The notes under the pieces are model-generated. The model was not told where the DNA came from, made no database searches, and worked only from the letters and a program-made list of their open reading frames with translations. A stretch of DNA of 64,000 nt from an uncultured Bacteroidales bacterium. Lineage in GTDB: Bacteria > Bacteroidota > Bacteroidia > Bacteroidales > UBA10428. Below, piece after piece: positions 33,685-48,847 of this stretch. The stretch is taken from assembly GCA_963808745.1 (NCBI GenBank), contig CAWEGX010000012.1, forward strand, positions 86,720 to 150,719, in the 5' to 3' direction. The position numbers and the translations under genes are program-made. The stretch's first letter is position 1. Every line of letters begins with the position of its first letter.

Positions 33685-34290
33685 AAGGACAAGGGACAAG
33701 GGACAAGGGACTAGTCCCTCAGCATCTGGCAATTTTGCCACAAAATAAATAACTGAAATGGAAAATGCGAGCAAAGCGAGCATTCATCGCGAAATCTGCG
33801 AAATCTGAGGGAGAAAAAATTTCGAAGAAAAACATATTGGCACAGGGAGGGATGGCCAAAAGTTTTACACAGAGGACCACGGAGTTAAGGTGAGCTTAAC
33901 GTGGCTTGGAGGACACAGAGCGCAATCTCATTTCATTCGATTGACCGTTCAGTATGTAGTTATATCTACATCGTTGAGATCAGTGTAATCTGAGATAAAA
34001 TAGGCCCGGAGAGGTTTTCATGCGAGCTACGCGAGCATGGATCTGCGGAATCTGTCGAGAGAAGATTTTAGGATTTTAGGCTTTCCAGGTAATGTGTAAA
34101 GTTTTTTACGCAGATCGCAAAGGTATTTCGAAAGTTTGAAAATTTGAAAATGTGAAAATTAAGCTTTTCAGTCATGCAGATCAGTGCAGTCCTTCAAACT
34201 CTTATGAAGTATACTCCTTACTCCTTACTCACTCGTCTCACGTCCTCTCAGCTCTCATCTCTCATCTCTCAGTCTCTCGTCACCTCTCAC
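33685..34290. repeat. Repeat-rich intergenic region (AAGGGAC, GCGAGC/ATCTGCG, TTTGAAAA and CTCATCT-type repeats)
   Basis: (AAGGGAC)3 at 33691, gcgagcaaagcgagc near 33767, tttgaaaatttgaaaatgtgaaaa near 34135, ctctcatctctcatctctca near 34250. Confidence 0.65.
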
Positions 34291-34568
34291 TTCCCGTGTT
34301 TCCCCTCCAGCTCCTTAATTTTCTCTCTAATCCGGAGATAATAAGCCTTGTACTTAATAAAGTGATTCCCTTTTTCAAATTCCCAGATTATGTTGCCGGC
34401 ACGGTAAATTTTGCCTATGCAGGCTTCAAAAATGAGATTGTAATTTACACCCGTGATGCTTTCAGCCTGGAGGATGGAATGGAATCTGACGTTTTTATCG
34501 CCGAAATATCCAATGACGGGTAAGTTGTACTTTTTTTGTTTTCGTTTTAGCTGAGGTTGGGTTGTCAT
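34287..34568 (-). CDS. Small NUMOD1-like (IENR1) DNA-binding domain protein
   Basis: PVIGY...FHSILQAESITGVNYNLIFEACIGKIYRAGNIIWEF fits the NUMOD1 pattern FxSxxxA...I...c.GK...AG..W. Confidence 0.62.
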   Translation of the reverse strand: MTTQPQLKRKQKKYNLPVIGYFGDKNVRFHSILQAESITGVNYNLIFEACIGKIYRAGNIIWEFEKGNHFIKYKAYYLRIREKIKELEGKHGK

Positions 34569-34681
34569 GGGTAACCTTTTTTATAATTTACGAATATTAC
34601 CCTCTATTTGTTACGAATATGGTCTATGCATTGCCCGGATGAACAATTGCGGCCGGTGTATGTTAATCCAGTCGAGATATC

Positions 34682-36280
34682 ATGAATGTGGACGTCCTTA
34701 CATCAAATACAAAATCCGGTTCAGCGGCATTCAGATCACGGGTTGGGGAATATAATGCCCTTGTCGGAGATTTGAATGAAACCATCAGGGCAAAAACCCG
34801 CGGCGGAAACCAGGAATCGGTAAAAAAGCATACTTCCAGGGGCAAACTGATGGCCCGGGAACGGATTGACCTTTTAGTGGATGAAAATACCGCTTTTCTT
34901 GAATTCTCACCGCTGGCTGCTATTGGCCAGTATAATGATGATTTCCCCGGGGCCGGCATTATTACCGGGATCGGTGTCATTCACAACAGGGAAACGGTAA
35001 TTGTAGCCAATGACGCCACCGTCAAGGGCGGGACATACATAGCTGAAACCATAAAAAAACATCTCCGGGCCCAGCAAATTGCACTCGAAAATAGTCTGCC
35101 CTGTTTTTACCTGGTGGATTCGGGGGGGATTTTCCTGCCCGAACAGGCAAGGGTATTTCCCGACAGGCATGATTTCGGCCGGATATTTTATAACCAGGCC
35201 AGGTTATCCTCATTGGGCATACCGCAAATCTCTGCCGTTATGGGTTCATGTACTGCAGGAGGAGCCTATGTGCCTGCCATGAGCGACGAAACGGTGATCG
35301 TAAAGGGACAGGGAACTATATTCCTTGGTGGTCCACCCCTTGTAAAAGCGGCCACGGGTGAAACTGTCACTGCCGAAGAACTTGGGGGAGCACTTGTACA
35401 TACGACCTTGTCGGGAGTGGCCGACCACCTTGCTGTGAATGAGCATCATGCAATTAATATTTGCAGAAACATTGCTTCTACTTTTCCGTCACCCCAAAAG
35501 CAGGAAATTCAACGCTCAGCGCCTGAAGATCCGCTGTATGATCCTGCGGAATTATATGGTTTACTTGGACTTACATCACGTGAGATTCCTGATGCCCGTG
35601 AAATCATTGCACGTCTTGTGGATGGCAGCCGGTTTCACGAATTTAAGGCCGGTTACGGTACAACATTAATTACAGGCTTTGCCCGGATTATGGGTTACCC
35701 GGTCGGCATATTGGCCAATATGGGCATCTTGTATCCGGAATCCGCCCTTAAAGGAACGCATTTTATCGAATTATGCAATTTCAGGAAAATTCCTATGCTG
35801 TTCCTTCAGAATATCAATGGATTCATGGTCGGTAAAGATGTTGAAAACCGGGGGATTGCAAAAGACGGAGCAAAGATGGTGCATGCAGTGGCCACCTCCT
35901 CCGTACCTTTTTTTACCATAATAATTGGCGGTTCGTATGGTGCCGGAAATTATGCCATGGCTGGCAGGGCATATGATCCGCGATTACTTTTTATGTATCC
36001 CGGAGCCCGGATTTCCGTGATGGGTGCTGAACAGGCTGCCGTTGTGCTTGGCAGCATCGGAAAACAGGAAGGCAAGCCTGATCGCATAATCACGTCTGAA
36101 TCCGGTAACCCGATATACGACACATATAACCGTGAAGGATCACCGTATTACAGCACATCCAGAATTTGGGATGACGGTATTATTGACCCCCTTGACACCC
36201 GAAAGATTATAGCCATGGGAATTGCCATGTCGCTGAATAAAAGATTTTCTGAACCTGCCAATGGCATTTACCGCATGTAA
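34682..36280 (+). CDS. liuB: 3-methylcrotonyl-CoA carboxylase beta (carboxyltransferase) subunit
   Basis: GKLMARERI, ANDATVKGGTY, KKHLRAQ, VDSGG, FPDRHDFGRIFYNQA, GSCTAGGAYVPAMSD, GSYGAGNY, WDDGIIDP. Confidence 0.92.
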   Translation: MNVDVLTSNTKSGSAAFRSRVGEYNALVGDLNETIRAKTRGGNQESVKKHTSRGKLMARERIDLLVDENTAFLEFSPLAAIGQYNDDFPGAGIITGIGVIHNRETVIVANDATVKGGTYIAETIKKHLRAQQIALENSLPCFYLVDSGGIFLPEQARVFPDRHDFGRIFYNQARLSSLGIPQISAVMGSCTAGGAYVPAMSDETVIVKGQGTIFLGGPPLVKAATGETVTAEELGGALVHTTLSGVADHLAVNEHHAINICRNIASTFPSPQKQEIQRSAPEDPLYDPAELYGLLGLTSREIPDAREIIARLVDGSRFHEFKAGYGTTLITGFARIMGYPVGILANMGILYPESALKGTHFIELCNFRKIPMLFLQNINGFMVGKDVENRGIAKDGAKMVHAVATSSVPFFTIIIGGSYGAGNYAMAGRAYDPRLLFMYPGARISVMGAEQAAVVLGSIGKQEGKPDRIITSESGNPIYDTYNREGSPYYSTSRIWDDGIIDPLDTRKIIAMGIAMSLNKRFSEPANGIYRM

Positions 36281-36293
36281 CCTGATAACCATA

Positions 36294-37085
36294 ATGAATG
36301 CCCGGACAATTATCACCGAGATCAGGGGGCCTTTGGCCCGGCTGTGGTTAAACCGCCCCGGAGTGAGAAATGCATTGGACAAACCGATGCTGGAAGAACT
36401 TTTTTCGGCCATTGAAAACATCAACAACAATCCGGCAATCCGCATTGTCAGTTTGCGGGGAATTGGATCCTCTTTTTGTGCCGGTGCCGATCTTGGATGG
36501 ATGCAAAAAGCACAGGGCCTGTCGAAGGACGAAAACTACCGGGAGAGTATCCTCCTGGCAAAATGTTTTCATGCCTTATATACAAGCCCTAAAATTATTG
36601 TAGCGGGCATACATGGTGCAGCCCTGGGTGGGGCGATCGGCCTGGTTTCAGCCTCTGATATCGCCGTTACGACGAATACAGCAGTTTTTGCATTTTCGGA
36701 AGTGAAACTGGGACTGATACCGGCCACTGTGGCCCCCTATCTTCTGCGCAAAAGCTCCAGCGGAAAAATTATGGAGTACCTGCTGACAGGAAGGAAATTC
36801 AGCGGGCATGATGCAGTATCTATCGGATTGGTAAACAGGTCGGTACCTGATGAGCAGTTCGAACAGGTGCACGAAGATCTCCTCACTGAATTGCTGAAGG
36901 CAGCCCCTGATGCCCAGCTTAAAATTAAGGAATTGATCCGTTCTCTTACCGGATCTGCGCCCGACATAACCATCATGGCAAGAACCGCTTCACTTCTGGC
37001 TGAAACCAGGGTGTCGGAAGAGGCAGGAGAAGGTATCCGGGCATTCCTGGAAAAGCGACAACCAGGCTGGATGAGCGGCCAGTAG
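36294..37085 (+). CDS. liuC: Enoyl-CoA hydratase, 3-methylglutaconyl-CoA hydratase-like
   Basis: LNRPGVRNA, FCAGADLGWM, GAALGGAIGL, FSEVKLGLIPA, EGIRAFLEKRQP; sits between the MCC subunits. Confidence 0.85.
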   Translation: MNARTIITEIRGPLARLWLNRPGVRNALDKPMLEELFSAIENINNNPAIRIVSLRGIGSSFCAGADLGWMQKAQGLSKDENYRESILLAKCFHALYTSPKIIVAGIHGAALGGAIGLVSASDIAVTTNTAVFAFSEVKLGLIPATVAPYLLRKSSSGKIMEYLLTGRKFSGHDAVSIGLVNRSVPDEQFEQVHEDLLTELLKAAPDAQLKIKELIRSLTGSAPDITIMARTASLLAETRVSEEAGEGIRAFLEKRQPGWMSGQ

Positions 37086-37099
37086 AAAAGGAGCCTGCA

Positions 37100-39097
37100 T
37101 TGAAACCGGATTCCATACATAAAATTTTGATTGCCAATCGCAGTGAAATAGCCCTGCGGGTAAAGCGTGCTGCCACATCACTCAATATTCCTACTGTTGC
37201 TATTTTCACCGGTCAGGAATCAGAATCCTCCTGGGTCAGGCAATTTCAAGAATCCTATTCTTTGGGGAGTGGACCTCTTTCCGATACCTGGCTCAATATT
37301 GCTTCTATCATAGCGTTGGCTAAAAAATCGGGTGCAGATGCAATCCACCCCGGCTATGGTTTTTTATCGGAAAACAGCCTTTTTGCGAAGGCTTGTGAAG
37401 AAAATAAAATTCGCTTTATCGGTCCGTCTGCTGAAATATTAAAACTCATGGGTGATAAATTAACTGCCCATCATTTTGTATCCGGACTTGGAATACCGGT
37501 CATCGATAAAATTATCGACACACCGCATGAGATCAGTAAGCTGCGGCATTCGATTGAATATCCGGTTTTGGTTAAAGCAGTGGCAGGCGGAGGTGGAAAG
37601 GGCATGCGCCTTGTGAAATCACATGCAGAGCTTAGGGATGTTCTTGAAATTACATCCAATGAAGCTTATCATTACTTTGCCGATGACAGGGTTTATGTTG
37701 AAAAATACCTTCATGCCCCGCGCCATATTGAAGTTCAGATAATTGGCGATGTGCATGGCAATATTGTTCATTTGTTTGAACGCGAATGTTCCATTCAGCG
37801 CAGGCATCAGAAAATAGTTGAAGAGGCACCTGCTGCCAGTCTGCCGGACCAGGTCAGAAAAGAAATAATTGATGCCGCGCTCACCATAGCCAGGTCAGTG
37901 AGGTATGTTAACGCCGGCACAATTGAATTTCTGCTGGATGATTCCGGAGATTTCTTCTTTCTTGAAATGAATACCCGCATCCAGGTTGAGCATGGCATCA
38001 CAGAAATGATTACAGGCATCGACCTGGTAAAAGAACAGATCCGGGTGGCCGAAGGATACCCACTATCCTTTTCACAGACCGATATCCTCAGGCATGGCCA
38101 TGCCATTGAATCGCGCATATACGCTGAAGATCCGGAGCATGATCTGCTGCCATCGCCGGGGAAAATTCATTACTACCGGGAACCTTCCCTCAATGCAGTT
38201 CGCATGGAATCTGCAGTTACCTCAGGCACTGAAATACAAGCCGATTTCGATCCCCTGATTGCCAAGGTCATTGCTCATGGGCCAACCCGTGAGGATGCAA
38301 TTTCACAGATGGAGAGGGCCCTGGAACAAACCGTGATCACAGGGGTTCGCCATAATATACCCCTCATCAGGGCTATACTGGCAGATGAGGATTACAGGCG
38401 GAATGAAGTGAGCACTACATACCTGCAGGATAGGTACGAACTATTCAAAGTGCTGATTTCAACCCGAAAGAAAAAAACTGACCCGTGGGAGCTGATCCTG
38501 GCCGGAACCCTGGTCTCCCTGTTTTCACCGAAAAGCCGGCAATCCTCCATTTGGAATTCATTGGGATACTGGAGAATTACACCACGAATTGGATTTAAAT
38601 ACAACAATCTGCAGCATACTGCTGAGTATCGCATAGTCAGCACTGATTCAGCGGATATCTGGTATGATTCCGTAAAGCGGTCAGTTACCAATATCCGTGT
38701 TGAAGAAAATGCAGTGTCTTATGATCAGGATGATGTAAATGCCTGTTTTTATTTTGTGCCCGAAACAAATGGGGTAATTGTGATTACAAAAGATGGCCTT
38801 GATTTCGGGCTCAGGCGAACAGACAGGCTTGAATCAACAGACTTTGGTCTTTTTGAAGAAGAAAGTACCGTTGAACAGGAACTGGTAAGATCGCCGCTGC
38901 CGGGGAAGGTAAACCGGATATTTGTTAAAGTGAATGAAAAAGTAAACAAGGGTGATCATTTGGTCACCATTGAATCAATGAAACTTGAAAATGGCATTCT
39001 GGCGCCTCATGAAGGTACTGTTCAGCAAATCCTCACCAGTGAAGGGGCACAGGTTAGTCAAAATGAGCCATTGGTTTTTATTAAACTTCTGCAATAA
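37100..39097 (+). CDS. liuD: 3-methylcrotonyl-CoA carboxylase alpha (biotin carboxylase + biotin carrier)
   Basis: ILIANRSEIA, HPGYGFLSEN, GGGGKGM, ERECSIQRRHQK, EMNTRIQVEH; biotinyl motif ESMKLE; TTG start. Confidence 0.9.
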   Translation: MKPDSIHKILIANRSEIALRVKRAATSLNIPTVAIFTGQESESSWVRQFQESYSLGSGPLSDTWLNIASIIALAKKSGADAIHPGYGFLSENSLFAKACEENKIRFIGPSAEILKLMGDKLTAHHFVSGLGIPVIDKIIDTPHEISKLRHSIEYPVLVKAVAGGGGKGMRLVKSHAELRDVLEITSNEAYHYFADDRVYVEKYLHAPRHIEVQIIGDVHGNIVHLFERECSIQRRHQKIVEEAPAASLPDQVRKEIIDAALTIARSVRYVNAGTIEFLLDDSGDFFFLEMNTRIQVEHGITEMITGIDLVKEQIRVAEGYPLSFSQTDILRHGHAIESRIYAEDPEHDLLPSPGKIHYYREPSLNAVRMESAVTSGTEIQADFDPLIAKVIAHGPTREDAISQMERALEQTVITGVRHNIPLIRAILADEDYRRNEVSTTYLQDRYELFKVLISTRKKKTDPWELILAGTLVSLFSPKSRQSSIWNSLGYWRITPRIGFKYNNLQHTAEYRIVSTDSADIWYDSVKRSVTNIRVEENAVSYDQDDVNACFYFVPETNGVIVITKDGLDFGLRRTDRLESTDFGLFEEESTVEQELVRSPLPGKVNRIFVKVNEKVNKGDHLVTIESMKLENGILAPHEGTVQQILTSEGAQVSQNEPLVFIKLLQ

Positions 39098-39123
39098 TCA
39101 ACAAAAAATAATATTTGAAATAA

Positions 39124-40281
39124 ATGCATCCATTTCTTACACCATCTCATGAAAAGTTCCGGCATAAGATCCGGGAGTTTGCCACAAAGGAAATTAAAGA
39201 AATTGCGCGAAAGCTTGATGATACCAGCACTTTTTCACCCGAAATAACCCGGAAAATGGGCCAGTTTGGACTTTTTGGAATGAATCTTCCTGAAAAGTAT
39301 GGTGGAACGAATATGGATACACTTTCATATATAATTGCTGTAGAAGAGCTTGCGCGTATTGATAGTTCCCAGGCTGCCACCGTGGCTTCGCATAATTCCC
39401 TGGGCATTGGTCCCATATACCAGTTTGGAACCGACAGGCAGAAGGAAGAGCTTTTGCCTGGTTTCTGCACCGGTGATCGGTTATGGGCATTCGGGCTCAC
39501 CGAGGAATCAGCCGGTTCAGATGCCCGCGGAACAAAGACGGAAGCCATACACAGCGATGGCCACTGGGTGATCAACGGTTCCAAGATGTTCATTACCAAT
39601 TCAGCTTCTGTATTATCGTATGGGGCAACAATACAGGTTGTTACAGGTAATAACAACGGTGACAAGGAACTTTCGGTGATCCTGGTTCCCCGCAATACAC
39701 CCGGTTACAGATGCGAAAGAATAGGCAACAAGATGATGTGGCGTGCCGCGGATACCGGGATGCTGTATTTTGATAATTGCCGCGTTCCGGAGGAGAACAT
39801 CCTGGGTAAAAGAGGAATGGGAGCAAAGATCATGTTACAAACCCTTGACAGCGGTAGATTGTCGATTGCTGCCATGGGACTTGGATTGGCACAGGGCGCA
39901 TTTGAACTGGCACTCGAATATGCGAAAACACGGGTTCAGTTCGGTCGGCCGATCTCACAGTTCCAATCCATTGCATTCAAGCTGGCAGATATGGACATGA
40001 AACTTGAACTGGCCCGCAACACCCTTTACAAAGCCTGCAAAATGAAAGATGACCATTTGCCGTTTGGCAGGGAAGCTGCCATTGCCAAATTATACTGCTC
40101 CGAAATTGCACGGGAGGTAGCTGACGAGGCGGTGCAGATCCATGGGGCTTATGGATTATTCAAGGACAGCGATATTGAAAGATTTTACCGCGATCAGCGA
40201 ATCCTGCAGATAGGTGAAGGAACTTCAGAAATTCTGCGGGTTGTGATCTCACGGTATTTGGGATTGAAACACATTTCTTAA
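39124..40281 (+). CDS. Acyl-CoA dehydrogenase (putative isovaleryl-CoA dehydrogenase by context)
   Basis: FGLTEESAGSDA, INGSKMFITN, RVQFGRPI, VQIHGAYG, IGEGTSEI. Confidence 0.88.
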   Translation: MHPFLTPSHEKFRHKIREFATKEIKEIARKLDDTSTFSPEITRKMGQFGLFGMNLPEKYGGTNMDTLSYIIAVEELARIDSSQAATVASHNSLGIGPIYQFGTDRQKEELLPGFCTGDRLWAFGLTEESAGSDARGTKTEAIHSDGHWVINGSKMFITNSASVLSYGATIQVVTGNNNGDKELSVILVPRNTPGYRCERIGNKMMWRAADTGMLYFDNCRVPEENILGKRGMGAKIMLQTLDSGRLSIAAMGLGLAQGAFELALEYAKTRVQFGRPISQFQSIAFKLADMDMKLELARNTLYKACKMKDDHLPFGREAAIAKLYCSEIAREVADEAVQIHGAYGLFKDSDIERFYRDQRILQIGEGTSEILRVVISRYLGLKHIS

Positions 40282-40284
40282 TAT

Positions 40285-41283
40285 ATGGAACACCGTAAGG
40301 CTGATCATATCGAAATGGCATTTCTGTCTCAGGTAAATGAGGTAGAACATGACAACAGGTTCTTTTATGAACCAATGCTTCATCCGCATCCTTTGAATGA
40401 ATCATTATCACTGACATTTCTGGGAAAAAAGCTGGGGGTGCCTATGTGGGTTTCCAGCATGACGGGCGGAACATTTGCAGCCCGAAAGATCAATGCAAAC
40501 CTGGCCAGGGCCTGTCAGGAATTTCGCATGGGGATGGGACTGGGATCATGCCGGGCACTGCTTGACAGCAATGCAAGCCTTCACGACTTTGACATGCGCG
40601 ACATCATTGGTGATGATCTGCCCTTGTATGCTAACCTGGGTATCAGCCAGGTGGAGCAAATGGTGGAAAACAAACAGGTGGACAGGATCAGGATCCTTAT
40701 CGATAAATTGCGTGCCGACGGGCTCGTTGTTCACGTAAACCCCTTGCAGGAATTTTTCCAGCCCGGCGGCGATCGCCTAAAGCTGGCTCCCATTATATCC
40801 ATAAAACGCCTGCTCGATGTAGCCGGCTTTCCCGTTATTGTAAAAGAAGTAGGACAGGGAATGGGTCCGGCAAGCCTGCGGGAATTGATTCGTCTGCCCC
40901 TGGCTGCAATAGAATTTGCTGCGTTTGGCGGCACCAATTTTTCAAAGCTGGAAATGCTCCGAAGCGAGGAAGGGACAGTTGATGCATACGGACCACTTGC
41001 CTGTGTTGGCGAATCCGCTGGTGACATGGTCACCTATGTAAATAAAATTCTTGCGGATGAACCCGGCATCAATTGCAGACAAATCATCATATCCGGTGGA
41101 CTTAAAAGTTTCCTGGATGGATTCTATTTAATGAAGAAATTGCATACAACATCGATATTTGGCCAGGCATCCGGATTTTTGCGGCATGCGAAAGAAGGCT
41201 ATGAAGAACTTCATCAATATGTAAGTCACCAGGTGAAGGGTTTAAACCTGGCAAACTCCTATCTAACAATTAAAAAAGGATAA
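40285..41283 (+). CDS. fni: Type 2 isopentenyl-diphosphate isomerase (FMN-dependent)
   Basis: RKADHI, SSMTGG, GLGS, NLG, HVNPLQE, VKEVGQG, GGTNF, ISGG. Confidence 0.93.
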   Translation: MEHRKADHIEMAFLSQVNEVEHDNRFFYEPMLHPHPLNESLSLTFLGKKLGVPMWVSSMTGGTFAARKINANLARACQEFRMGMGLGSCRALLDSNASLHDFDMRDIIGDDLPLYANLGISQVEQMVENKQVDRIRILIDKLRADGLVVHVNPLQEFFQPGGDRLKLAPIISIKRLLDVAGFPVIVKEVGQGMGPASLRELIRLPLAAIEFAAFGGTNFSKLEMLRSEEGTVDAYGPLACVGESAGDMVTYVNKILADEPGINCRQIIISGGLKSFLDGFYLMKKLHTTSIFGQASGFLRHAKEGYEELHQYVSHQVKGLNLANSYLTIKKG

Positions 41284-42606
41284 ATGGAAATCTACGGGCA
41301 AATACAGGGATTTTCAAAACTTGGCAGGGAAGACCAGGTGAAACTGGTAGCGTCGTTTACTGATGACCCTGCCGGAATCGTTCATGAACTCAATGCACAT
41401 TTGTCGCCGGATGGTTCACGGCAAAAGCTGTACCAGGAATTTTCAGAAAATTCAGTTTCAAATTTCTTCCTGCCCTATAGCATTGCGCCCAATTTCAGGA
41501 TCAATAATAAGTACTATCTCGTCCCTATGGTAGCCGAAGAAAGCTCTGTGGTCGCTGCCGCTGCTTCTGCTGCCAAATACTGGTCGGAAAGGGGTGGATT
41601 TCATACCAGCATCGGTACCATGCAGAAGCCGGGCCATATACATTTCACCTGGAAGGGCAGTGCAGTGGAAATAGCCACCTTCATCAATGACTTAACTCCC
41701 GGCTTTTATCAGGTGACTTCCTGGTTAACCAGGCGAATGAATCAGCGGGGTGGGGGGATCATGAAAATTAACCTGAAGGATCTGACAGATCAGATGGAAG
41801 GCTATTACCAGCTTGAGGTTATTTTTGAAACGGCTGATTCCATGGGAGCGAATTTCATGAATTCCTGCCTTGAACAAATGGCGGACTTTCTTCACCAGCA
41901 GGTTCAACTGGCAGGACTGACGGGACGTCTTGAAATAATTATGTCTGTCCTCTCAAATTATTCTCCCGGATGTACGGTTGAATGCAGGGTGAATTGTCCT
42001 GTAACTGAAATGGCCCATCGGGAATATAATCTTGGAGGTATGGATTTCTGCAGGAAATTTGAAACAGCGGTGAATCTGGCTAAACATGATGTTTACAGGG
42101 CAGTAACACATAATAAGGGAATATACAATGGCGTTGATGCAGTAGTTATCGCCACAGGAAATGATTTCAGGGCAGTTGAGGCAGACGGGCATGCTTTTGC
42201 TTCCAGGAATGGAAAATATCGCGGTTTAACGGATGTTGAAGTGTCGCAGGATTCATTCAATTGCCGTATTGAGATCCCGGTTACTGTAGGCACTGTGGGT
42301 GGACTTACAGGACTGCACCCGCTGGCCGCAGTTTCTTTGAAAATTCTTGGAAATCCGGGTGCATCTGAGCTCATGTCGATTGTAGCCGCTGCCGGTATGG
42401 CCAGTAATTTCAGTGCAATCAGGGCACTCATTACAGGAGGAATTCAAAAGGGACATATGAAACTGCATCTATCCAATGTTTTGAATCAGTTTCATGCATC
42501 TGATACAGAGAAGCTGGCAGCCATGAAATACTTTGCCAAAAGGGCCGTATCTTTTTCTGCCGTTGAGGATTTTCTCACCAATTTGCGTACCCGTCTTGAA
42601 AAGTGA
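41284..42606 (+). CDS. mvaA: HMG-CoA reductase, class II
   Basis: SEN, PMVAEESSVVAA, DSMGANFMN, THNKGIYNG, GNDFRAVEA, GTVGG, GIQKGHMKLH. Confidence 0.94.
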   Translation: MEIYGQIQGFSKLGREDQVKLVASFTDDPAGIVHELNAHLSPDGSRQKLYQEFSENSVSNFFLPYSIAPNFRINNKYYLVPMVAEESSVVAAAASAAKYWSERGGFHTSIGTMQKPGHIHFTWKGSAVEIATFINDLTPGFYQVTSWLTRRMNQRGGGIMKINLKDLTDQMEGYYQLEVIFETADSMGANFMNSCLEQMADFLHQQVQLAGLTGRLEIIMSVLSNYSPGCTVECRVNCPVTEMAHREYNLGGMDFCRKFETAVNLAKHDVYRAVTHNKGIYNGVDAVVIATGNDFRAVEADGHAFASRNGKYRGLTDVEVSQDSFNCRIEIPVTVGTVGGLTGLHPLAAVSLKILGNPGASELMSIVAAAGMASNFSAIRALITGGIQKGHMKLHLSNVLNQFHASDTEKLAAMKYFAKRAVSFSAVEDFLTNLRTRLEK

Positions 42607-43534
42607 AGCGATAAAACGGTATTATGCCAACGGGAAATTGCTGATCTCAGGAGAATACCTTGTTCTTTCAGGAGCTGATGCCCTTGCTGTTCCTCTGAAA
42701 AAGGGACAATGGCTTGAAGTCGGAATGATCAGCGGTGAAGAGAGGCCTTGTCTGAAATGGCTGGCATGGGTGCTTGACAAAGAATGGTTCTCTGCTGAAA
42801 TACTGTTGCCGGACATGGAGATTGTGCGGTCCTCTGATCCGCTCATAGCAAGGCGCCTCGTAAAAATTTTAAGTGAAATCACCGAAATGAGCAATGGACT
42901 ATTTGAACCGGGCAAAAGTTATTCCTTTTCAACAGTCTCTACTTTTGATCATAACTGGGGAATGGGAAGCAGTTCTGCGCTCATTGCAAACCTGGCCCGG
43001 TGGGCAATGATCGACCCGTTTGACCTTTTCCATCGACTTAATAAGGGCTCAGGTTATGATGTTGCCACTGCACTGGCCAAAGGGCCAATCCTTTTCAGCA
43101 CTTCCCGCAACAAGGCGAGAGTAATTCCTGTGAGGTTTCTGCCTGCCTTTCATCCGCAAATATGGTTTGTTTACACAGGTCAGAAGCAGGATACTGAGCG
43201 AGGCCTTTACGATTACAGCTTATTACCGGAGCCTGCCAGGCAACAGATCGAAATGATAAATTATTTCACGGGTGAATTACTGCATACGAAGCACCTGCAG
43301 CAATTTATGCAAATTATGTCGGAGCATGAGTCGTTTATTTCAAATTTGTTGGGAAAGAAAACTGTTAAAGAGGAATATTTCAGTGATTTCAATGGCGAAA
43401 TCAAATCCCTGGGTGCCTGGGGAGGTGATATGATGATGGCAGTCTCTGAATTGCCAGGGGACTATATTCGTACTTATTTTAAAACAAAAGACATACAAAC
43501 GGTGTTTGACTTTCATTCATTGATCTTATCATGA
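42596..43534 (+). CDS. GYDIA-type GHMP kinase, putative phosphomevalonate kinase
   Basis: GKLLISGEYLVLSGA, WGMGSSS, GSGYDVA, KSLGAWGGD; likely TTG start at 42596 overlapping mvaA. Confidence 0.85.
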   Translation: MKSEAIKRYYANGKLLISGEYLVLSGADALAVPLKKGQWLEVGMISGEERPCLKWLAWVLDKEWFSAEILLPDMEIVRSSDPLIARRLVKILSEITEMSNGLFEPGKSYSFSTVSTFDHNWGMGSSSALIANLARWAMIDPFDLFHRLNKGSGYDVATALAKGPILFSTSRNKARVIPVRFLPAFHPQIWFVYTGQKQDTERGLYDYSLLPEPARQQIEMINYFTGELLHTKHLQQFMQIMSEHESFISNLLGKKTVKEEYFSDFNGEIKSLGAWGGDMMMAVSELPGDYIRTYFKTKDIQTVFDFHSLILS

Positions 43535-44640
43535 CGTTTAAATCACTGGAAGACAAATTTATCAGTCAGGCACATGAACTTCTGAATCCGGCTGTCTTTC
43601 TTCCCGGACAGTCGGCATGGGAATGCCCTTCAAATATTGCACTTATTAAATACTGGGGTAAAACGCAGTTCCAGAAACCGCTGAATCCTTCAGTGAGCAT
43701 GACTCTTCAGCATTCCAAAACGATTATTTCAGTTGATTATTTTTATCAAAGGAAGTTGAAAGAAATGTCGCTATCCTATTTTTTTGAAGATAAGCAACAC
43801 CCAACCTTTGAGGACAGGTACCGGCAATATCTGGAACATGTTTCAAAATATCTTCCGTTTCTTAATCACACTGAATTAGTGATTAAATCACGAAATACCT
43901 TTCCCCATTCCGCCGGCATAGCCTCATCGGCGTCATCATTCGGAGCCCTGGCGCTTGCACTCTGTGATATAGAACGCAGTTTGTTTGGTACGCTGCCCGA
44001 AGATGCCGATTTCATGGAAAAAGCCTCTTTTCTGGCCCGGCTTGGTTCAGGAAGTGCATGCCGGTCGGTTTATGGCGGCTTTTCATTATGGGGCAGGACT
44101 GAAGATTTAATGGCGTCAACCGATGAAGCGGCCATTTCATTGAATTTCATCATTCATCCTGTATTTACAGATTATTGCGACAGCATTCTTGTTATCGATT
44201 CCGGTAAAAAGGAGGTCTCCAGTTCTGCAGGCCACCGGTTGATGGAACATCATCCTTTTGCTGGGGCACGCATTGCCCAGGTGCAGGATAATCTTAAAAG
44301 AATGCTGATTTCTTTACAAACCGGGAAAGAACCGAAATTTTCGACCCTTGTTGAAGAAGAGGCCCTCACCTTGCATGCCATGATGCTGACATCACGACCC
44401 GGTTATATACTGTTAAAGCCCAATTCTCTCGAGGTGATTGACCGGATCAGGCAGTTCAGAAATTCCACCGGTATGCCGGTAAGTTTTACCCTGGATGCCG
44501 GGGCGAACGTGCATCTTTTATATCCGGCCAGAGTAATCAGCGAAATCAAACCATTTATTATGGATCAACTGGCCGTCTTCTGCCAGGAAGGCAATATAAT
44601 TCATGATACAATCGGAACCGGGCCGGTAAAACTTCTCTGA
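43531..44640 (+). CDS. mvaD: Diphosphomevalonate decarboxylase
   Basis: PSNIALIKYWGK, NTFPHSAGIASSAS, ARLGSGSACRS, SSSAG, FTLDAGANVH. Confidence 0.94.
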   Translation: MTFKSLEDKFISQAHELLNPAVFLPGQSAWECPSNIALIKYWGKTQFQKPLNPSVSMTLQHSKTIISVDYFYQRKLKEMSLSYFFEDKQHPTFEDRYRQYLEHVSKYLPFLNHTELVIKSRNTFPHSAGIASSASSFGALALALCDIERSLFGTLPEDADFMEKASFLARLGSGSACRSVYGGFSLWGRTEDLMASTDEAAISLNFIIHPVFTDYCDSILVIDSGKKEVSSSAGHRLMEHHPFAGARIAQVQDNLKRMLISLQTGKEPKFSTLVEEEALTLHAMMLTSRPGYILLKPNSLEVIDRIRQFRNSTGMPVSFTLDAGANVHLLYPARVISEIKPFIMDQLAVFCQEGNIIHDTIGTGPVKLL

Positions 44641-44642
44641 TC

Positions 44643-45590
44643 ATGAAAATCACGATCCTTTCAAACCGGAATTATTCCGGAAAATTGCTGTTGATCGGTG
44701 AACATTCGGTAATTGAAGGCTCCAGGGCACTTGTGATTCCCTTTCCGGATGTTTCAGCAAATCTGGTTCTCACACAGCAGCTACTTTTAGGGGAAGATCT
44801 GGGATCCAATCGCGTACTGTTTGAGTTCGCCTCCTGGTTGCGGGAAAATCAACACTCATCGCTGCCAAAGCTGGATATACCCAGGCTGGTCCGGGATATT
44901 GAACTGGGATTGTATTTCCGGTCTTCCATTCCCCGGGGATATGGTCTTGGGAGTTCTGGTGCCTTATGTGCAGCTATATATGATGAATACGCTGAGGGGA
45001 AGAATAAATTATCAGAAAAACCGGATACTGATGAGTTATTGGATGTAAAAACAGCATTAGCTTCCATGGAATCCTGGTTTCATGGCACCAGTTCAGGGAT
45101 CGATCCGCTCTGCATTTACTACAACCAACCGTTAATCGTTGAGGGGAAAAAAAACCTAACAACCTGGCACATTGAAAACATCCGGAACCAGGGTTTGCAG
45201 GTCTTCCTTCTGGATACCGGATTGACAGGTAATACAAGAGAACTGGTTAAGACTTTTCGGAATAAATTGCAGGGGCAGAGTTTGAAAGAAAGTTTTACCG
45301 AGCAGTATATTCCATTGGTTAACGAGATAGTGGATCAGTTTGTGGATGGCCGTCCTGATTATGATTCGCTGGTTCAGCTATCCTTATTTCAGTGGAGGAT
45401 ATTTCAGGATATGATTCCTGAAAAATTCCGCATGGTATGGCAATATGGACTCGACTGGGAATATTATGCCTGCAAATTACTCGGATCGGGTGGCGGCGGT
45501 TACATCCTTGGTTTCACGCGGGATTTTGAATATGCAAAACTTTGTCTCAGGGAACAGTTTGGTCTCGAACCGATTCATCTGAATATCTGA
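44643..45590 (+). CDS. mvk: Mevalonate kinase
   Basis: GKLLLIGEHSV, SIPRGYGLGSSGA, ESWFHGTSSGID, KLLGSGGGG. Confidence 0.92.
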   Translation: MKITILSNRNYSGKLLLIGEHSVIEGSRALVIPFPDVSANLVLTQQLLLGEDLGSNRVLFEFASWLRENQHSSLPKLDIPRLVRDIELGLYFRSSIPRGYGLGSSGALCAAIYDEYAEGKNKLSEKPDTDELLDVKTALASMESWFHGTSSGIDPLCIYYNQPLIVEGKKNLTTWHIENIRNQGLQVFLLDTGLTGNTRELVKTFRNKLQGQSLKESFTEQYIPLVNEIVDQFVDGRPDYDSLVQLSLFQWRIFQDMIPEKFRMVWQYGLDWEYYACKLLGSGGGGYILGFTRDFEYAKLCLREQFGLEPIHLNI

Positions 45591-45750
45591 TTTTTGCTCG
45601 CAGATCTCAAAGTGCTAACGGCGTTTCGCTCGCATGCGAAATCTCGCGATTTGCAGTTTCGCAGTCATGCTCTGCATGAAAACCTCCATAATCCCTCAAC
45701 TCTTAACGATCATCATTTATCATTCATATTTATCATTCATAATTATTCTA

Positions 45751-45786
45751 ATCAACTATCAACTATCAACTATCAACTTTCAACTA
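45751..45786. repeat. Heptamer tandem repeat (ATCAACT)5
   Basis: atcaact x4 plus ttcaact, just upstream of the TACCTTTG -7 box at 45793. Confidence 0.88.
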
Positions 45787-45816
45787 ATTTTTTACCTTTG
45801 CGCCAAATATTTCAAG

Positions 45817-46200
45817 ATGGCGTTTGAAATTGGCGAACAAAGTATTAGTAAGCTCATCATGGTGGGAGACAGGGTGTTGATTAAGCCCAAGACACCGCAT
45901 GATAAAACAAAAACGGGATTGTACCTGCCTCCGGGAGTGCATGAACAGGAGCCAATTCAAACCGGTTATGTAGTGAAAGTCGGGCCCGGATATCCGATTC
46001 CTGCCATTCAGGAAGCCGATGAGCCATGGAAAGACAGGGGAGAGGAAGTTAAGTATGTGCCTTTGCAGCCCAGGGAGGGAGATGTAGCAGTATATCTGCA
46101 GAAAAGCGGATGGGAAATTGAATTTAACAATGAGAAATATGTTGTTATTCCCCATAATGCCATACTAATGCTGATCAGGGATGAGGGACTTTTTACCTGA
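45817..46200 (+). CDS. Orphan GroES/Cpn10-family co-chaperonin
   Basis: GDRVLIKP, KTKTGLYLP, GYVVKVGPG; start MAFE at 45817; no groEL adjacent. Confidence 0.85.
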   Translation: MAFEIGEQSISKLIMVGDRVLIKPKTPHDKTKTGLYLPPGVHEQEPIQTGYVVKVGPGYPIPAIQEADEPWKDRGEEVKYVPLQPREGDVAVYLQKSGWEIEFNNEKYVVIPHNAILMLIRDEGLFT

Positions 46201-46345
46201 GATGCATATGTATTCTTCCATTCTGTACGTTTTATATTTTAAAATAGCGAATGTCGTTTTACATCCGGTTATATGCTGTTAGTCACTTATTTGCTCCACT
46301 CGTCAATATTATTCTAACTTTTTAATTGTTAAACCGTAACCTTAC

Positions 46346-47337
46346 ATGTTATCAGATCAACCAAAACCCAGCATTAAAGATATGCGCCATTACAAATTAT
46401 ACAACGATCAGTTCCAGGCAGGATTTCTTTCAGAGCAGGATGCCTTGTTCAGAATTGTCTTTGAAGAATCGCCCGATGCAATTTTTATGCTAAATCCGGG
46501 CAATTTCAATATTATTGATTGCAATGCAAAAGCCATTCAGCTTTTTCAGGGTGATCAAAAGACAGACCTTACAGGCCGGGAATCATTTGAATTATATGAT
46601 GCTCCGCCAGCAGAATTCAGTAAAAACGTATTTATCGACACGATCAATAAGGGCACTGATCATTCACAGGAGATGGCCTTCCGGTCGTTAAAGGGAAATA
46701 TTTTCTGGGGCAAGTGTTCTGTTAAGAGGGTAGAGGCAGCCCGGGGATCCGTCATTGTATTCCGTGTAAGGCGCGTGGTTGATTATATGAAAACGGCAGA
46801 AATGCTGTCCACCATGATCAAGCAAACAGCCAGGGTAACCGGAATGGAATATTTTGGTGTGCTGACAGAATTGCTGGTCAAATCATTTGGAGTAAGCGTG
46901 GCATTCGTTGCCACCATTGACGAAGACATGCAAAAATCCAATATTATACATTGCTGGCACAAGCAGCAATTCCTTGAATGCAAATCGTATGAGCTTGCTA
47001 CCAGTCCGTCCCTGAATGTACTTCGGGGATATACGGCTTACTATCCCAATAATCTCCGGGAAATGTTTCCCGATGATAAGCTGATCCAACATCTTGGAAT
47101 GGAAAGCTACATGGGTACACCGGTATTTGATGTGAAGGGTGAGGTATGCGGATTATTGGTGATGATGGATGACAAGCCCATGGAGGAAATTCCCAATTCA
47201 CGGAATATATTTCCATTTTTGCTTCCCGCGTAGGCGCTGAGCTTGAAAGGATGCAGATTGAAGAATCGTACAAGAAGAAGATACATGAACTGACGAGGAT
47301 GATTGGTAATCAGTCGGCAGTGATCAGTAATCAGTAA
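46346..47337 (+). CDS. PAS + GAF domain sensor protein; frameshift near 47205
   Basis: FRIVFEESPDAIF...DCNAKA (PAS); FPDDKL...ESYMGTP...GLL (GAF); alternative frame continues SIFASRVGAELER to TAA at 47337. Confidence 0.8.
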
Positions 47338-47716: not shown

Positions 47717-48007
47717 TTTATTACACCCTGTTTTACACACAAATTATATCTTAATCCTGCCACTATACGACTTCTCAAAGCAATAAATTACCCCCCTTAC
47801 TTTTGTTGGATTTTACGTTAACAGTTCATATATAGGGAAACCAAATAGGCGATATTTATAATTAACCCGGTGTGATGGCTGGGTTATTCTTTTCACCCCA
47901 AATTCGTCAAAATTCACTTGACTTCAGCTTTTAAATATTGTAAATTGTATCTCATAAATGACTAAAGGTCATACAATTTCCTAATTAGCTAACCAAACTA
48001 AAAAACA

Positions 48008-48454
48008 ATGAAAACAAAAACATTTCTTCTCTTATGTCTTTTTATGGGCATTGTTGCGTCCCAGCTTTTTGCACAACCACCTGAAACAGACCCAGGAAAC
48101 AGGACTTATAAATGGGTTGAACAAATTGATGAAAATGATTATAATATATCAATAGTCTGTGGCGGTGCGGAGGTTGATGTATTGAATTTTGTAGTACCTT
48201 TTGATTTAAGACTTATGTCTCATATAAAGAATGGCCAGGAGACTTGGTTTAAGGCAAAGCTTAATAACACTAAATTTGTCAGTAAGATAACTCAGGAAGT
48301 TTTCAACGGACAAACGACTGAAATCCAATTTCAAAAAGGTCAGTATCTTTGGACTTTACACCTGAATGGAAATATGGGACACCATTATAATATCAAAATG
48401 GTATTTGAAACAGTTTACTGGGATTTAATTTATTATCATTCTTCTTGTAACTAA
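48008..48454 (+). CDS. Hypothetical secreted protein
   Basis: Signal peptide MKTKTFLLLCLFMGIVASQLFA-Q; AT-rich. Confidence 0.7.
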   Translation: MKTKTFLLLCLFMGIVASQLFAQPPETDPGNRTYKWVEQIDENDYNISIVCGGAEVDVLNFVVPFDLRLMSHIKNGQETWFKAKLNNTKFVSKITQEVFNGQTTEIQFQKGQYLWTLHLNGNMGHHYNIKMVFETVYWDLIYYHSSCN

Positions 48455-48541
48455 ATTATCGAAACTCTTGAGCAGTATTATATTGCGATAAAGCTGTATG
48501 TGCTGAAAATGGGAAGACATAAACTGACAATGCAATACAGT

Positions 48542-48576
48542 AAGTCCCCGGATATTCGCCCCGGGGATTTATTTTT
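48542..48576 (+). terminator. Rho-independent terminator
   Basis: AAGTCCCCGG...CCGGGGATTT followed by ATTTTT. Confidence 0.65.
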
Positions 48577-48710
48577 ACATAAATTTAGTTTATAATAAAC
48601 AAGGTTAAATGCCGGTTCTTTTAAATTATGACTCCGTTGCTTTCACCTTTTTCGGCTTCACAAATTCAGGATCCTGGATAAGAACCAGCAGCGTTGAAGT
48701 TTCCCTTACC

Positions 48711-48847
48711 TGGAAAAATCGGTCATATTGACCACCTCTCGCCGGAGATTATTCATTTTATTAAATAACTTGTTATCAAATATTTAAGCCTGGAATCGGT
48801 TGATCAATGAATTCCGGCTTGCGATGGTCATCTGCACTGTTTTTCCA
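48711..48847. mobile_element. MITE copy L (137 bp, IS21-like TGGAAAAA...TTTTTCCA ends)
   Basis: Starts TGGAAAAATCGGTCATATTGACCACC, ends GCACTGTTTTTCCA; inverted homolog at 49763-49900. Confidence 0.72.

Follow-up and report, generated by a model that had tools for sequence, protein, structure and literature searches.

A predicted nine-gene operon in Bacteroidales combines leucine catabolism and mevalonate pathway genes and probably acts as a leucine/isovalerate shunt

The window, i.e. the whole stretch of 64,000 nucleotides analysed here, originates from an uncultured Bacteroidales bacterium. At positions 34682-45590, nine intact open reading frames (ORFs) on the plus strand follow one another in the ORF listing, and their junctions consist of gaps of 0-26 nt or of overlaps. 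The earlier note had described nine co-oriented genes spaced in this way, which the ORF coordinates and the domain matches confirmed. The first four genes are referred to as the liu half and the following five as the mva half. The features are:

34559..34681, plus strand: terminator-like hairpin of the preceding gene, then a conserved leader/promoter region
34682..36280, plus strand: MCC beta, the carboxyltransferase subunit of 3-methylcrotonyl-CoA carboxylase (MCC); PF01039 (460 bits) and MCC beta PDB structures
36261..37085, plus strand: crotonase-family hydratase, presumably a 3-methylglutaconyl-CoA hydratase (LiuC-like); PF00378 (ECH_1), 166 bits
37100..39097, plus strand: MCC alpha (biotin carboxylase and biotinyl carrier); domain matches
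39124..40281, plus strand: acyl-CoA dehydrogenase (ACAD) of the SCAD/Bcd type, putative isovaleryl-CoA dehydrogenase; three ACAD domains
40285..41283, plus strand: type 2 isopentenyl-diphosphate isomerase (IDI-2); TIGR02151 and PDB matches
41284..42606, plus strand: class II HMG-CoA reductase (HMGR); PF00368, TIGR00532 and PDB matches
42533 (or 42596)..43534, plus strand: GYDIA-family GHMP kinase, putative phosphomevalonate kinase; NF040656
43531..44640, plus strand: diphosphomevalonate decarboxylase (MVD); MVD-like_N, MDD_C and TIGR01240
44643..45590, plus strand: divergent mevalonate kinase (MVK); GHMP_kinases_N and TIGR00549

The first two genes overlap by 20 nt, and the next four junctions are gaps of 14, 26, 3 and 0 nt. 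HMGR and the GYDIA kinase overlap by 74 nt if the latter starts from TTG 42533, or by 11 nt from the in-frame TTG 42596; the GYDIA kinase and MVD share 4 nt, and MVD and MVK are 2 nt apart. Just upstream of the operon, a terminator-like hairpin with a T run was found at 34559-34577. The leader/promoter region contains two copies of TTACGAATAT and an ATTTG element, and its identity averages 90% among four operon-carrying members of the genus (alignment A1); a search of 34559..34681 against Rfam gave no match. No terminator-like site was detected in any intergenic gap of the nine-gene operon, and thus none separates the liu from the mva half, a possibility that had been raised before. In one metatranscriptome, contigs 90-95% alike matched both halves of the operon; none of them spans the ACAD/IDI-2 junction, and DNA carry-over is possible. 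As part of the joint explanation given below, the nine genes would probably form one transcription unit and be co-transcribed.

In the PDB, MCC beta matched AccD1 of M. tuberculosis (660 bits), human MCCB (637 bits) and MCC beta of P. aeruginosa (614 bits). Geranyl-CoA carboxylase beta (388 bits) and propionyl-CoA carboxylase beta (about 250 bits) scored below these 614-660 bits. MCC alpha comprises the Pfam domains Biotin_carb_N, CPSase_L_D2, Biotin_carb_C and Biotin_lipoyl and was partnered with an MCC-type beta subunit in every cluster examined. Judged from these matches, both MCC subunits, alpha and beta, are present as in Liu catabolic clusters. The best NCBIfam matches of the hydratase, NF005675 (223.7 bits, cut-off 350) and the gamma-carboxygeranoyl-CoA hydratase model NF004227 (203.3 bits, cut-off 426), both remained below the cut-offs, and its PDB matches were AtuE (4zu2, 128 bits) and Myxococcus LiuC (5jbx, 105 bits). 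In the clusters of other genomes, the crotonase gene is always located between MCC beta and MCC alpha. 3-Methylglutaconyl-CoA is the putative substrate of this hydratase.

The acyl-CoA dehydrogenase, which the earlier note had counted among the Liu enzymes, turned out to be SCAD/Bcd-like and not a canonical LiuA of the IVD subfamily. Its best PDB matches were Bcd of C. difficile (5ol2, 344 bits) and rat SCAD (311 bits), whereas IVD structures reached only 196-208 bits, and an assignment to the IVD subfamily was rejected. The enzyme carries a Glu in the C-terminal GEGT motif, presumably at the position of the catalytic base of SCAD/MCAD. In lyase-type leucine catabolic clusters, the last gene of the liu module encodes an orthologue with 64-67% identity, and because of this place in the clusters the dehydrogenase may well act on isovaleryl-CoA. 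Many Bcd-type enzymes run reductively in anaerobes. Just one further ACAD was detected in the assembly of this organism, a 594-aa long form on contig C14.

The mva half has the same five genes in the same order as the Bacteroidota cluster IDI-2/class II HMGR/GYDIA kinase/MVD/MVK. IDI-2 scored 188.5 bits with TIGR02151, below the cut-off of 281, with an alignment covering 1-316 of 338; all five PDB matches were type 2 IDI structures. HMGR yielded 278 bits with PF00368 and 273.7 bits with TIGR00532 (cut-off 259.95), and its PDB matches were 7n7s (431 bits), then 5wpj, 3qae and 1qax, which we take to be class II reductases of Streptococcus and Pseudomonas mevalonii. By its sequence, the HMG-CoA reductase of the classical bacterial mevalonate pathway is represented. 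The GYDIA kinase exceeded the cut-off of NF040656 (301.6 bits, cut-off 225) and had no match in Pfam or in the PDB. Among 80 mva loci of other species, 68 have its gene directly 3' of HMGR, and by elimination the enzyme was assigned as the likely phosphomevalonate kinase. MVD scored 157.5 bits with TIGR01240 (cut-off 171) versus 94.6 bits with the phosphomevalonate decarboxylase model. MVK remained below the cut-off of TIGR00549 (84.4 bits, cut-off 163), and its best PDB match was the mevalonate kinase of S. aureus (2x7i, 40 bits). According to a passage of PMC6107057, which cites Hayakawa 2017, Flavobacterium johnsoniae possesses distant MVK and PMVK enzymes.

Genes for HMG-CoA synthase (HMGS), HMG-CoA lyase or thiolase were found neither in the 64,000-nt window, as had been noticed before, nor in the 4.36-Mb assembly of the organism. 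Since this assembly is only 67.8% complete, these absences weigh little alone. Within it, the sole match of TIGR01835 was FabH, PF00682 matched only a 210-aa aldolase-like fragment, and no real thiolase was detected. Among 201 genomes of the order, TIGR01835 exceeded its cut-off in none (three weak matches, all in HMGR-negative genomes), and PF08540 gave no match in any of the 201. HMGR was detected in 69 of the 201 genomes, and all 69 were without detected HMGS. As a positive control, the same HMGS models matched 7 of 151 genomes of the class, with proteins of G259 and G312 reaching 261 and 267 bits on TIGR01835; the search does recover HMGS of Bacteroidia, and the absence of mvaS assumed in the earlier note is borne out. 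The class sample contained 20 genomes whose HMGR is of the window's type, and 13 of them were likewise without HMGS. HMGS-like matches occurred in three genomes of the order (G009, G021 and G042), of which G021 was inspected.

The Liu (leucine/isovalerate utilisation) cluster of Pseudomonas is liuRABCDE. Liu clusters and the operon share MCC beta, hydratase, MCC alpha and acyl-CoA dehydrogenase, and Bacteroidales relatives possess the same four-gene order. In contrast to Liu clusters, the operon is devoid of HMG-CoA lyase (LiuE) and an acetoacetate-activating enzyme and contains five mevalonate genes instead; moreover, its dehydrogenase is SCAD/Bcd-like and not IVD-like. A lyase-like gene was found in 0 of 27 genomes with fused liu and mva genes (NF004283, E <= 1e-30), and lyase-like matches were obtained in 21 of 31 genomes with an unfused or undetermined mva cluster. 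In six non-fused genomes (G136, G123, G126, G116, G045 and G024), the liu genes occur in the same order; all six gave matches for MCC beta, crotonase and ACAD, and two of them also for MCC alpha. A lyase-like gene lies downstream of the liu genes in all three of them that were scanned, beside an acetoacetate-CoA ligase (914 bits; G136), a butyrate kinase (G116) or 3-oxoacid CoA-transferase A/B (G045). As the liu module elsewhere precedes the lyase and acetoacetate-activating genes, the mva genes occupy the place of the lyase module.

The operon is best explained as a self-contained leucine/isovalerate shunt into the mevalonate pathway, serving as accessory C5-salvage beside the MEP pathway; we assign this reading a probability of about 0.7. 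Isovaleryl-CoA would originate either from imported isovalerate or from leucine, in the latter case through transamination and a branched-chain 2-oxoacid dehydrogenase; the genome encodes three 2-oxoacid dehydrogenases with fused E1 alpha/beta. The SCAD-like dehydrogenase would convert isovaleryl-CoA to 3-methylcrotonyl-CoA and transfer the electrons to ETF and ETF:quinone oxidoreductase. The genes for these lie at another place in the genome, with a fused ETF next to ETF:quinone oxidoreductase. With ATP and bicarbonate, MCC alpha/beta would form 3-methylglutaconyl-CoA, and hydration by the crotonase would lead to HMG-CoA. Because these proposed steps lead from isovaleryl-CoA to HMG-CoA, the Liu module could substitute for thiolase and HMG-CoA synthase. 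The class II reductase would then produce mevalonate, MVK, the GYDIA kinase (as phosphomevalonate kinase) and MVD would convert it to IPP, and IDI-2 would yield DMAPP. The mva module would thereby take the place of the HMG-CoA lyase and acetoacetate activation in the leucine-catabolic clusters of relatives. In addition to the usual bacterial route, these sediment Bacteroidota probably use leucine or isovalerate for some of their isoprenoid units, and from the gene content we infer an actual flux from leucine to isoprenoids.

A sample of 200 other species-level genomes of the order contained 26, belonging to 21 coded families, with the same gene order and orientation, which exceeds chance and bears out the synteny across relatives that had been put up for examination. 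All nine genes lie in one stretch in 22 of these 26 genomes, and the match distance from ACAD to IDI-2 is <=25 nt in 16 of 24 loci. The arrangement was also found in the cultured Thermophagus xiamenensis, a Prolixibacteraceae MAG and a Bacteroidia MAG, none of which gave a match for HMGS or lyase (T. xiamenensis: no match of NF004283 at E <= 1e-20). Among 80 mva loci from other species, three have co-oriented liu genes directly upstream, and locus L056 has them about 3 kb downstream of the mva cluster and in the opposite orientation. Of 35 genomes of the genus, 12 carry the operon. G353, G007 and G360 show the same flanking genes around an empty site, and the block was therefore gained or lost as a whole. 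On the HMGR tree, the fused/unfused label takes 4 changes versus a shuffle mean of 22.9, and 0 of 500 shuffles were as low. Literature searches revealed no description of such a liu-mva operon, in agreement with the earlier note, which knew of no described bacterial operon of this build.

It is very improbable that both halves are independent, i.e. that liu serves leucine catabolism for energy, mva is fed from acetyl-CoA by an unrecognised synthase, and their adjacency is a historical accident. This type of mva cluster occurs in 57 other genomes of the order; liu genes lie directly upstream of it in 26, and the 31 genomes without adjoining liu genes (in 4 of them the contig end is too near to judge) would fit such an independence. 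The same holds for the 5 of 31 unfused HMGR genomes without a close MCC beta orthologue; therefore, some members need another HMG-CoA source, and one may exist in the order. However, the fused genomes lack a lyase-like gene with which leucine catabolism could be completed, and no HMGS was found in the order genomes. The tight junctions of 0-26 nt, the gain or loss of the whole block at one site in the genus and the fused state following one HMGR lineage also argue against independent halves.

We consider it very unlikely that the liu half operates in reverse. In this case HMG-CoA, e.g. from imported mevalonate oxidised by an NAD-type reductase, would be dehydrated, decarboxylated by MCC and reduced by the Bcd-like enzyme to isovaleryl-CoA, which would serve as a starter for iso-branched fatty acids or for leucine synthesis, comparable to the alternative isovaleryl-CoA pathway of myxobacteria. 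The Bcd/SCAD-like dehydrogenase and an HMGR above the cut-off of a model named 'degradative' (TIGR00532) are consistent with this direction, and iso-branched fatty acids dominate in Bacteroidota. Furthermore, G021 harbours an archaeal-type HMGS (526 bits) and a thiolase inside its liu cluster and has no HMGR; this cluster looks biosynthetic and suggests that biosynthesis is a further possible direction of the liu module. The fused genomes, however, are without detected HMGS, so that the forward liu module would be their sole internal source of HMG-CoA. MVK, the second kinase, MVD and IDI-2 in the operon would draw mevalonate to IPP, and the decarboxylation step to IPP is irreversible. In addition, an ETF:quinone oxidoreductase for the oxidative direction is encoded, and the same-order liu genes of relatives occur in a catabolic context, which is lyase-type in the three genomes scanned.

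The leucine/isovalerate shunt coexists with the MEP pathway: of the 201 order genomes, 193 gave a dxr match, among them each of the 26 other fused genomes. Because the MEP genes coexist, the route would be accessory and not a replacement, and the operon is not required to explain isoprenoid synthesis. For the dedicated leucine-to-IPP/DMAPP route postulated in the earlier note, the replacement of HMGS by Liu enzymes was supported; since MEP genes are present, the route would not be the sole one. The coexistence of MVA and MEP in this order differs from the general bacterial pattern given in the section 'Bacteria' of PMC6107057, where both are generally mutually exclusive except in Firmicutes and Actinobacteria.

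In the 67.8% complete assembly of this organism, dxr was not found, ispF contains three in-frame stops, and the N-terminus of ispG lies in another frame. Together with the nine intact operon genes, this could indicate that the MEP pathway is decaying and that this genome depends mainly or solely on the shunt for its isoprenoids, which we regard as unlikely. Other broken genes in the assembly are the ETF on C14 and a rhamnosidase within the window; these breaks and the incompleteness speak against a specific decay. If one A is added to the run at about 1806-1809 of L021, a segment is opened which presumably reads like IspF, and by eye the frame returns about 60 nt later; this shift and return is the signature of an assembly error. 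Moreover, dxr is present in the same-genus genome G007, besides the 26 of 26 other fused genomes.

Only tentatively, the ATP-dependent carboxylation of 3-methylcrotonyl-CoA from leucine or isovalerate, and not acetyl-CoA, might be considered as the normal and only entry into the mevalonate pathway across much of the class Bacteroidia. If this were true, C5 salvage would be a design of the whole phylum, with the fused operon as its most explicit expression, and members also devoid of the MEP pathway would derive all isoprenoids from branched-chain amino acid catabolism.

Flux from leucine to mevalonate is known by labelling in Leishmania (mexicana) and Halobacterium (salinarum), as stated in section 3.1.2 of PMC8791446. 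Leucine-derived isoprenoid carbon is thus known in trypanosomatids, as the earlier note had stated, but not only there, since a passage of PMC7321100 documents it in myxobacteria too. As far as described in these passages, the chemistry is the same as proposed here, from leucine via isovaleryl-CoA, 3-methylcrotonyl-CoA, 3-methylglutaconyl-CoA and HMG-CoA to mevalonate, bypassing acetyl-CoA; the known shunts were defined by isotope labelling, whereas the present one is defined by one operon. Leishmania, Halobacterium and myxobacteria presumably also have HMG-CoA synthase. In the operon carriers, neither synthase nor lyase was detected, and in the missing synthase they also differ from the classical pathway of mvaS, mvaA, mvaK1, mvaD, mvaK2 and fni.

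The alternative isovaleryl-CoA pathway of myxobacteria comprises MvaS, LiuC, AibA/B and AibC (cited in PMC7321100). As presented there, it likewise links HMG-CoA, 3-methylglutaconyl-CoA, 3-methylcrotonyl-CoA and isovaleryl-CoA with the mevalonate pathway. Its direction is from HMG-CoA towards isovaleryl-CoA, and it depends on MvaS and on a dedicated decarboxylase, whereas the operon has no synthase and encodes an ATP-dependent MCC. The G021-type cluster is a closer analogue of this myxobacterial pathway than the nine-gene operon.

The ORF listing of the window shows nine ORFs on the + strand, spanning 34682-45590, which overlap or are separated by 0-26 nt, as the earlier note had described. 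They were identified with Pfam and NCBIfam profiles and then compared with solved structures. Genes 1 to 4 form the liu module and genes 5 to 9 the mva module:

Fused operon, 34682-45590, + strand, in order of the genes
Gene 1, carboxyltransferase (MCC beta): PF01039, 460 bits
Gene 2, crotonase (hydratase): PF00378, 166 bits
Gene 3, biotin carboxylase with biotinyl domain (MCC alpha): four Pfam domains
Gene 4, acyl-CoA dehydrogenase (ACAD): three ACAD domains
Gene 5, type 2 IPP isomerase (IDI-2): TIGR02151, 188.5 bits, below the cut-off of 281
Gene 6, HMG-CoA reductase (HMGR): TIGR00532, 273.7 bits, above the cut-off of 259.95
Gene 7, GYDIA-family GHMP kinase: NF040656, 301.6 bits, above the cut-off of 225
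Gene 8, diphosphomevalonate decarboxylase (MVD): both Pfam domains; TIGR01240, 157.5 bits, below the cut-off of 171
Gene 9, divergent mevalonate kinase (MVK): TIGR00549, 84 bits, below the cut-off of 163

By its alignment scores, the carboxyltransferase groups with MCC beta subunits (M. tuberculosis AccD1 660 bits, human MCCB 637, P. aeruginosa MCC beta 614), whereas geranyl-CoA carboxylase reached 388 bits and propionyl-CoA carboxylases about 250. The reductase belongs to class II (structure match 7n7s, 431 bits), the isomerase matched structures of type 2 IDI only, and the GYDIA kinase had no relative in the structure database. The ACAD is not a canonical isovaleryl-CoA dehydrogenase (IVD), since Bcd/SCAD structures scored 311-344 bits and IVD structures only 196-208. 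A terminator-like hairpin with a T run (34559-34577) closes the gene preceding the operon, and the terminator scan of the window found no such site in any intergenic gap of the operon, where the earlier note had considered a terminator as evidence against a single unit. The neighbouring genes are unrelated: FeoAB, a transglycosylase and a small ORF precede the operon, and genes for a GroES-like and a PAS protein follow it. In the intergenic region before the small upstream ORF (33700-34055), short dispersed repeats of about 100 nt occur; copies with 79-95% identity are found on several contigs both of this genome and of genus relatives.

The absence of HMG-CoA synthase (HMGS), lyase and thiolase genes from the window, claimed earlier, was confirmed and extends to the whole assembly (4.36 Mb, 20 contigs, completeness rated 67.8%, the window lying on contig 12). 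In this assembly the HMGS model matched FabH only, the sole lyase-like match was a 210-aa aldolase-like fragment, and no real thiolase was found. The best-supported reading of this gene content is a shunt of leucine or isovalerate into the mevalonate pathway: isovaleryl-CoA would be converted to HMG-CoA by the liu module, and HMG-CoA to IPP and DMAPP by the mva module, with neither synthase nor lyase involved. For the MCC and HMGR steps of this putative route the family evidence is strong; the roles assigned to the dehydrogenase, to the hydratase and to the GYDIA kinase are presumptive, and carbon would actually flow along this path. Before and beside the ACAD step, 2-oxoacid dehydrogenases, an electron transfer flavoprotein (ETF) and ETF:quinone oxidoreductase are needed. 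The genome encodes three 2-oxoacid dehydrogenases with fused E1 alpha/beta and, at G000:C3:195943-199565 (L187 1943-5565, minus strand), a single 647-aa ORF with both ETF domains (beta and alpha fused), which directly adjoins ETF:quinone oxidoreductase. The only other ACAD in the assembly is a 594-aa long form. 2-Isopropylmalate synthase was not found with PF00682 in the 67.8% complete assembly; if this absence is real and not an assembly gap, the organism would lack leucine synthesis and depend on imported leucine or isovalerate.

An HMGR scan with one genome per species yielded 80 loci (46-51% identity). The GYDIA kinase lies immediately 3' of HMGR in 68 of them, and co-oriented liu genes lie directly upstream in only three (a Prolixibacteraceae MAG, a Bacteroidia MAG and Thermophagus xiamenensis DSM 19012); in a Bdellovibrionales MAG liu genes are nearby on the opposite strand. 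Neither HMGS nor lyase was matched in T. xiamenensis or in the two fused-operon MAGs; a true lyase (388.7 bits) is present in the MAG from Bdellovibrionales. Among 201 species-level genomes of the order, 69 contain HMGR. Of 74 HMGR places 60 were fetched, and those left out include eleven high-scoring or long and two partial ones. The synteny comparison proposed earlier (tblastn, E <= 1e-10, or 1e-8 for the genus-site and liu-cluster comparisons; at least 40-50% query coverage) found the window-type mva cluster in 57 other genomes, in 26 of which (21 coded families) co-oriented liu genes lie directly upstream, so that with the own genome 27/201 are fused. All nine genes form one stretch in 22 of these 26; one further operon is cut at a contig end, one is spread over two contigs, one lacks IDI-2 in the cluster (G074), and in one only MCC alpha and ACAD adjoin the mva genes (G040). 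Between the ACAD match and the IDI-2 match, 16 of 24 loci have no more than 25 nt, seven have 44-145 nt and one has 1000 nt. The 31 genomes counted as unfused include four with a contig edge beside HMGR (G183, G047, G012, G197). Ten genomes contain only other kinds of HMGR (G015, G026, G037, G162, G167, G008, G154, G179, G148, G177), with PF00368 scores of 383-432 bits in ORFs of 430-534 aa or 303-358 bits in ORFs of 632-802 aa; an MCC beta orthologue was not found in seven of the ten. Two further HMGR places (L161 and L162) showed no match to any window protein.

HMGS was found in none of the 201 genomes, neither with TIGR01835 over its cut-off nor with PF08540. The three weak TIGR01835 matches (about 110 bits) all occur in genomes without HMGR. 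In the class sample of 151 Bacteroidia genomes both models found the same seven genomes, and two of these proteins reached 261 and 267 bits on TIGR01835. The search of the order sample is thus sensitive enough, and an archaeal-type HMGS would also have been detected, because the 110-bit match of genome G021 proved to be of this type (NF003274, 526 bits). All 27 fused genomes contain a close orthologue of MCC beta (at least 59% identity), as do 26/31 other genomes with the mva cluster and 32 of the 143 remaining ones. Sorting the reductases of the class sample by score and by ORF length gave 20 genomes with window-type HMGR, of which 13 also lack HMGS. The corresponding test of MCC at class level was discarded, as an MCC beta-like gene at 43-52% identity is too common (132/151, including the unpublished genome G292) and its orthology uncertain.

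The genome G021, which lacks HMGR, contains a liu cluster of another kind (L165, G021:C1:52000-70000, about 2029-13182) with MCC beta, hydratase, an IS4 transposase, MCC alpha, archaeal-type HMGS, archaeal-type thiolase (517 bits) and a SCAD-like ACAD; G009 and G042 show similar HMGS-like matches. This cluster looks like a de novo isovaleryl-CoA route in which the liu module is run backwards. It gives some colour to the view that the liu half of the operon works in reverse, as does the Bcd-like dehydrogenase. However, a reverse liu half would require a source of HMG-CoA, which the fused genomes lack, and conflicts with the irreversible lower mevalonate steps.

Support for the leucine shunt also comes from the fate of HMG-CoA. 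NF004283 matched a lyase-like gene in 50/201 genomes, at 121-204 bits and thus short of its curated cut-off (246), and for the six such ORFs that were scanned it was the only or best family match. The lyase search suggested earlier found this gene in 0/27 fused genomes and in 21/31 unfused or contig-edge ones. Six liu clusters were taken from genomes without the fused operon. MCC beta, crotonase and ACAD keep their order in every one of these clusters, MCC alpha reached the required coverage in two, and the ACAD is 64-67% identical to that of the operon. The downstream ORFs were scanned in three of them:

Genes downstream of the liu genes in three genomes without the fused operon
G136: lyase-like gene, acetoacetate-CoA ligase (914 bits), second lyase-like gene
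G116: lyase-like gene, butyrate kinase
G045: lyase-like gene, 3-oxoacid CoA-transferase A and B, second lyase-like gene

Because lyase-like and acetoacetate-handling genes trail the same module there, gene context shows that the four-gene liu module is a real leucine-catabolic module, its SCAD-like dehydrogenase notwithstanding, and that in the window the position of the lyase module is filled by the five mva genes. The earlier proposal that Liu enzymes replace HMGS is supported by this exchange and by the lack of HMGS matches over the cut-off in 201 genomes, with the correction that the dehydrogenase is not a canonical LiuA/IVD.

That the two halves are independent of each other is hard to square with this distribution of lyase and synthase and with the gain and loss of the block as a whole. 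Operon DNA was found in 12 of 35 genus genomes including the own one, in four contiguously at 78-92% identity and in seven in several pieces at 64-77%. Three relatives (G352, G377, G373) have an identical context. In G353 the site is empty: nothing lies in the 125 nt that separate the small upstream ORF from the GroES-like gene, and the two are collinear; the site is also empty in G007 and G360, with the GroES-like gene inverted. A tree was built from 68 reductases by quick search, with SH-aLRT as the only support and a midpoint root; it leaves out the short matches L159 and L160 as well as L161 and L162. On it the fused/unfused label requires four changes, compared with a mean of 22.9 after shuffling (0/500 as low). 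A contig end truncates the locus in two of the four exceptions, and the unfused reductases cluster with those of other orders and phyla.

The search for MEP genes gave a divided result: dxs, ispD, ispE, ispF, ispG and ispH are present in the own assembly and dxr was not found in it (67.8% complete), yet dxr occurs in 193/201 genomes of the order, including all 26 other fused ones. The operon route is therefore an accessory isoprenoid route in organisms that retain MEP. Decay of the MEP pathway was considered for the own genome, where ispF (G000:C18:151457-151918, L021 1471-1980) carries three in-frame stops and the N-terminus of ispG (G000:C5:699503-701135, L004) lies in a different frame. These breaks are probably assembly errors, because at least one ispF break falls in an A run and the reading frame recovers about 60 nt downstream, and because other genes are fragmented as well: an ETF on contig C14, and an alpha-L-rhamnosidase in the window (53341-56088), broken into three overlapping ORFs (53341-54312, 54246-54830, 54760-56088). 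According to the section 'Bacteria' of PMC6107057, MVA and MEP generally exclude each other in bacteria, Firmicutes and Actinobacteria providing exceptions; in contrast, both coexist in the fused-operon Bacteroidales.

Two entries into bacterial isoprenoid synthesis are textbook knowledge, the MEP pathway and the route from acetyl-CoA via thiolase and HMG-CoA synthase. The operon, which is widespread in the order (27/201 genomes) and in the genus (12/35), is genomic evidence for a third, hard-wired entry with a catabolic carboxylase module in place of the synthase. The flux itself is already known: section 3.1.2 of PMC8791446 reviews a 'leucine shunt' for Halobacterium salinarum and Leishmania mexicana, and a passage of PMC7321100, citing Bode 2009, states that leucine degradation supplies mevalonate-dependent isoprenoids in myxobacteria. 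The earlier statement that no bacterial operon built this way is described agrees with the full-text literature searched, which contained no description of one; leucine-derived isoprenoids, for which the earlier note named trypanosomatids, are documented in bacteria as well. As far as this literature shows, the hard-wired liu-mva operon is new. An HMGS-less MVA pathway in Bacteroidota was likewise not described in the full texts searched, and the gene tables supplementing PMC6107057 and PMC4026382 may record it. If the shunt operates, 13C signatures of isoprenoid lipids of sediment bacteria would need rereading, and amino acid supply would govern the sensitivity to MEP inhibitors. The nine genes might also serve as a compact natural part for IPP production from isovalerate or leucine, which, according to a passage of PMC8791446 and to its authors' knowledge, has not been built in E. 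coli. With T. xiamenensis DSM 19012 a cultured carrier exists, which makes the idea directly testable.

Four genus members share the leader of the operon (34580-34681) at a mean identity of 90%, which equals or exceeds that of the operon DNA (78-92%). The leader carries two TTACGAATAT-like copies at a distance of 23 nt as well as a CCGG...CCGG element; it matched no Rfam family and may act as an operator or as a leader RNA. A scan with the sigma-70 consensus (40 sites, 25.9 expected) was disregarded, because Bacteroidota promoters obey another consensus. For expression, the region 34000-46500 was compared with the sediment metatranscriptome X20 and three DNA runs. Contigs of the X20 RNA library, 90-95% alike, cover parts of MCC beta, MCC alpha, ACAD, IDI-2, HMGR and MVD; none of the contigs from this one metatranscriptome, which derive from relatives and may include DNA carry-over, spans the ACAD/IDI-2 junction. 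The nine genes are presumably co-transcribed. Downstream of the operon, the region 48001-50000 has a G+C content of 0.337, compared with about 0.43 elsewhere, and contains short ORFs only.
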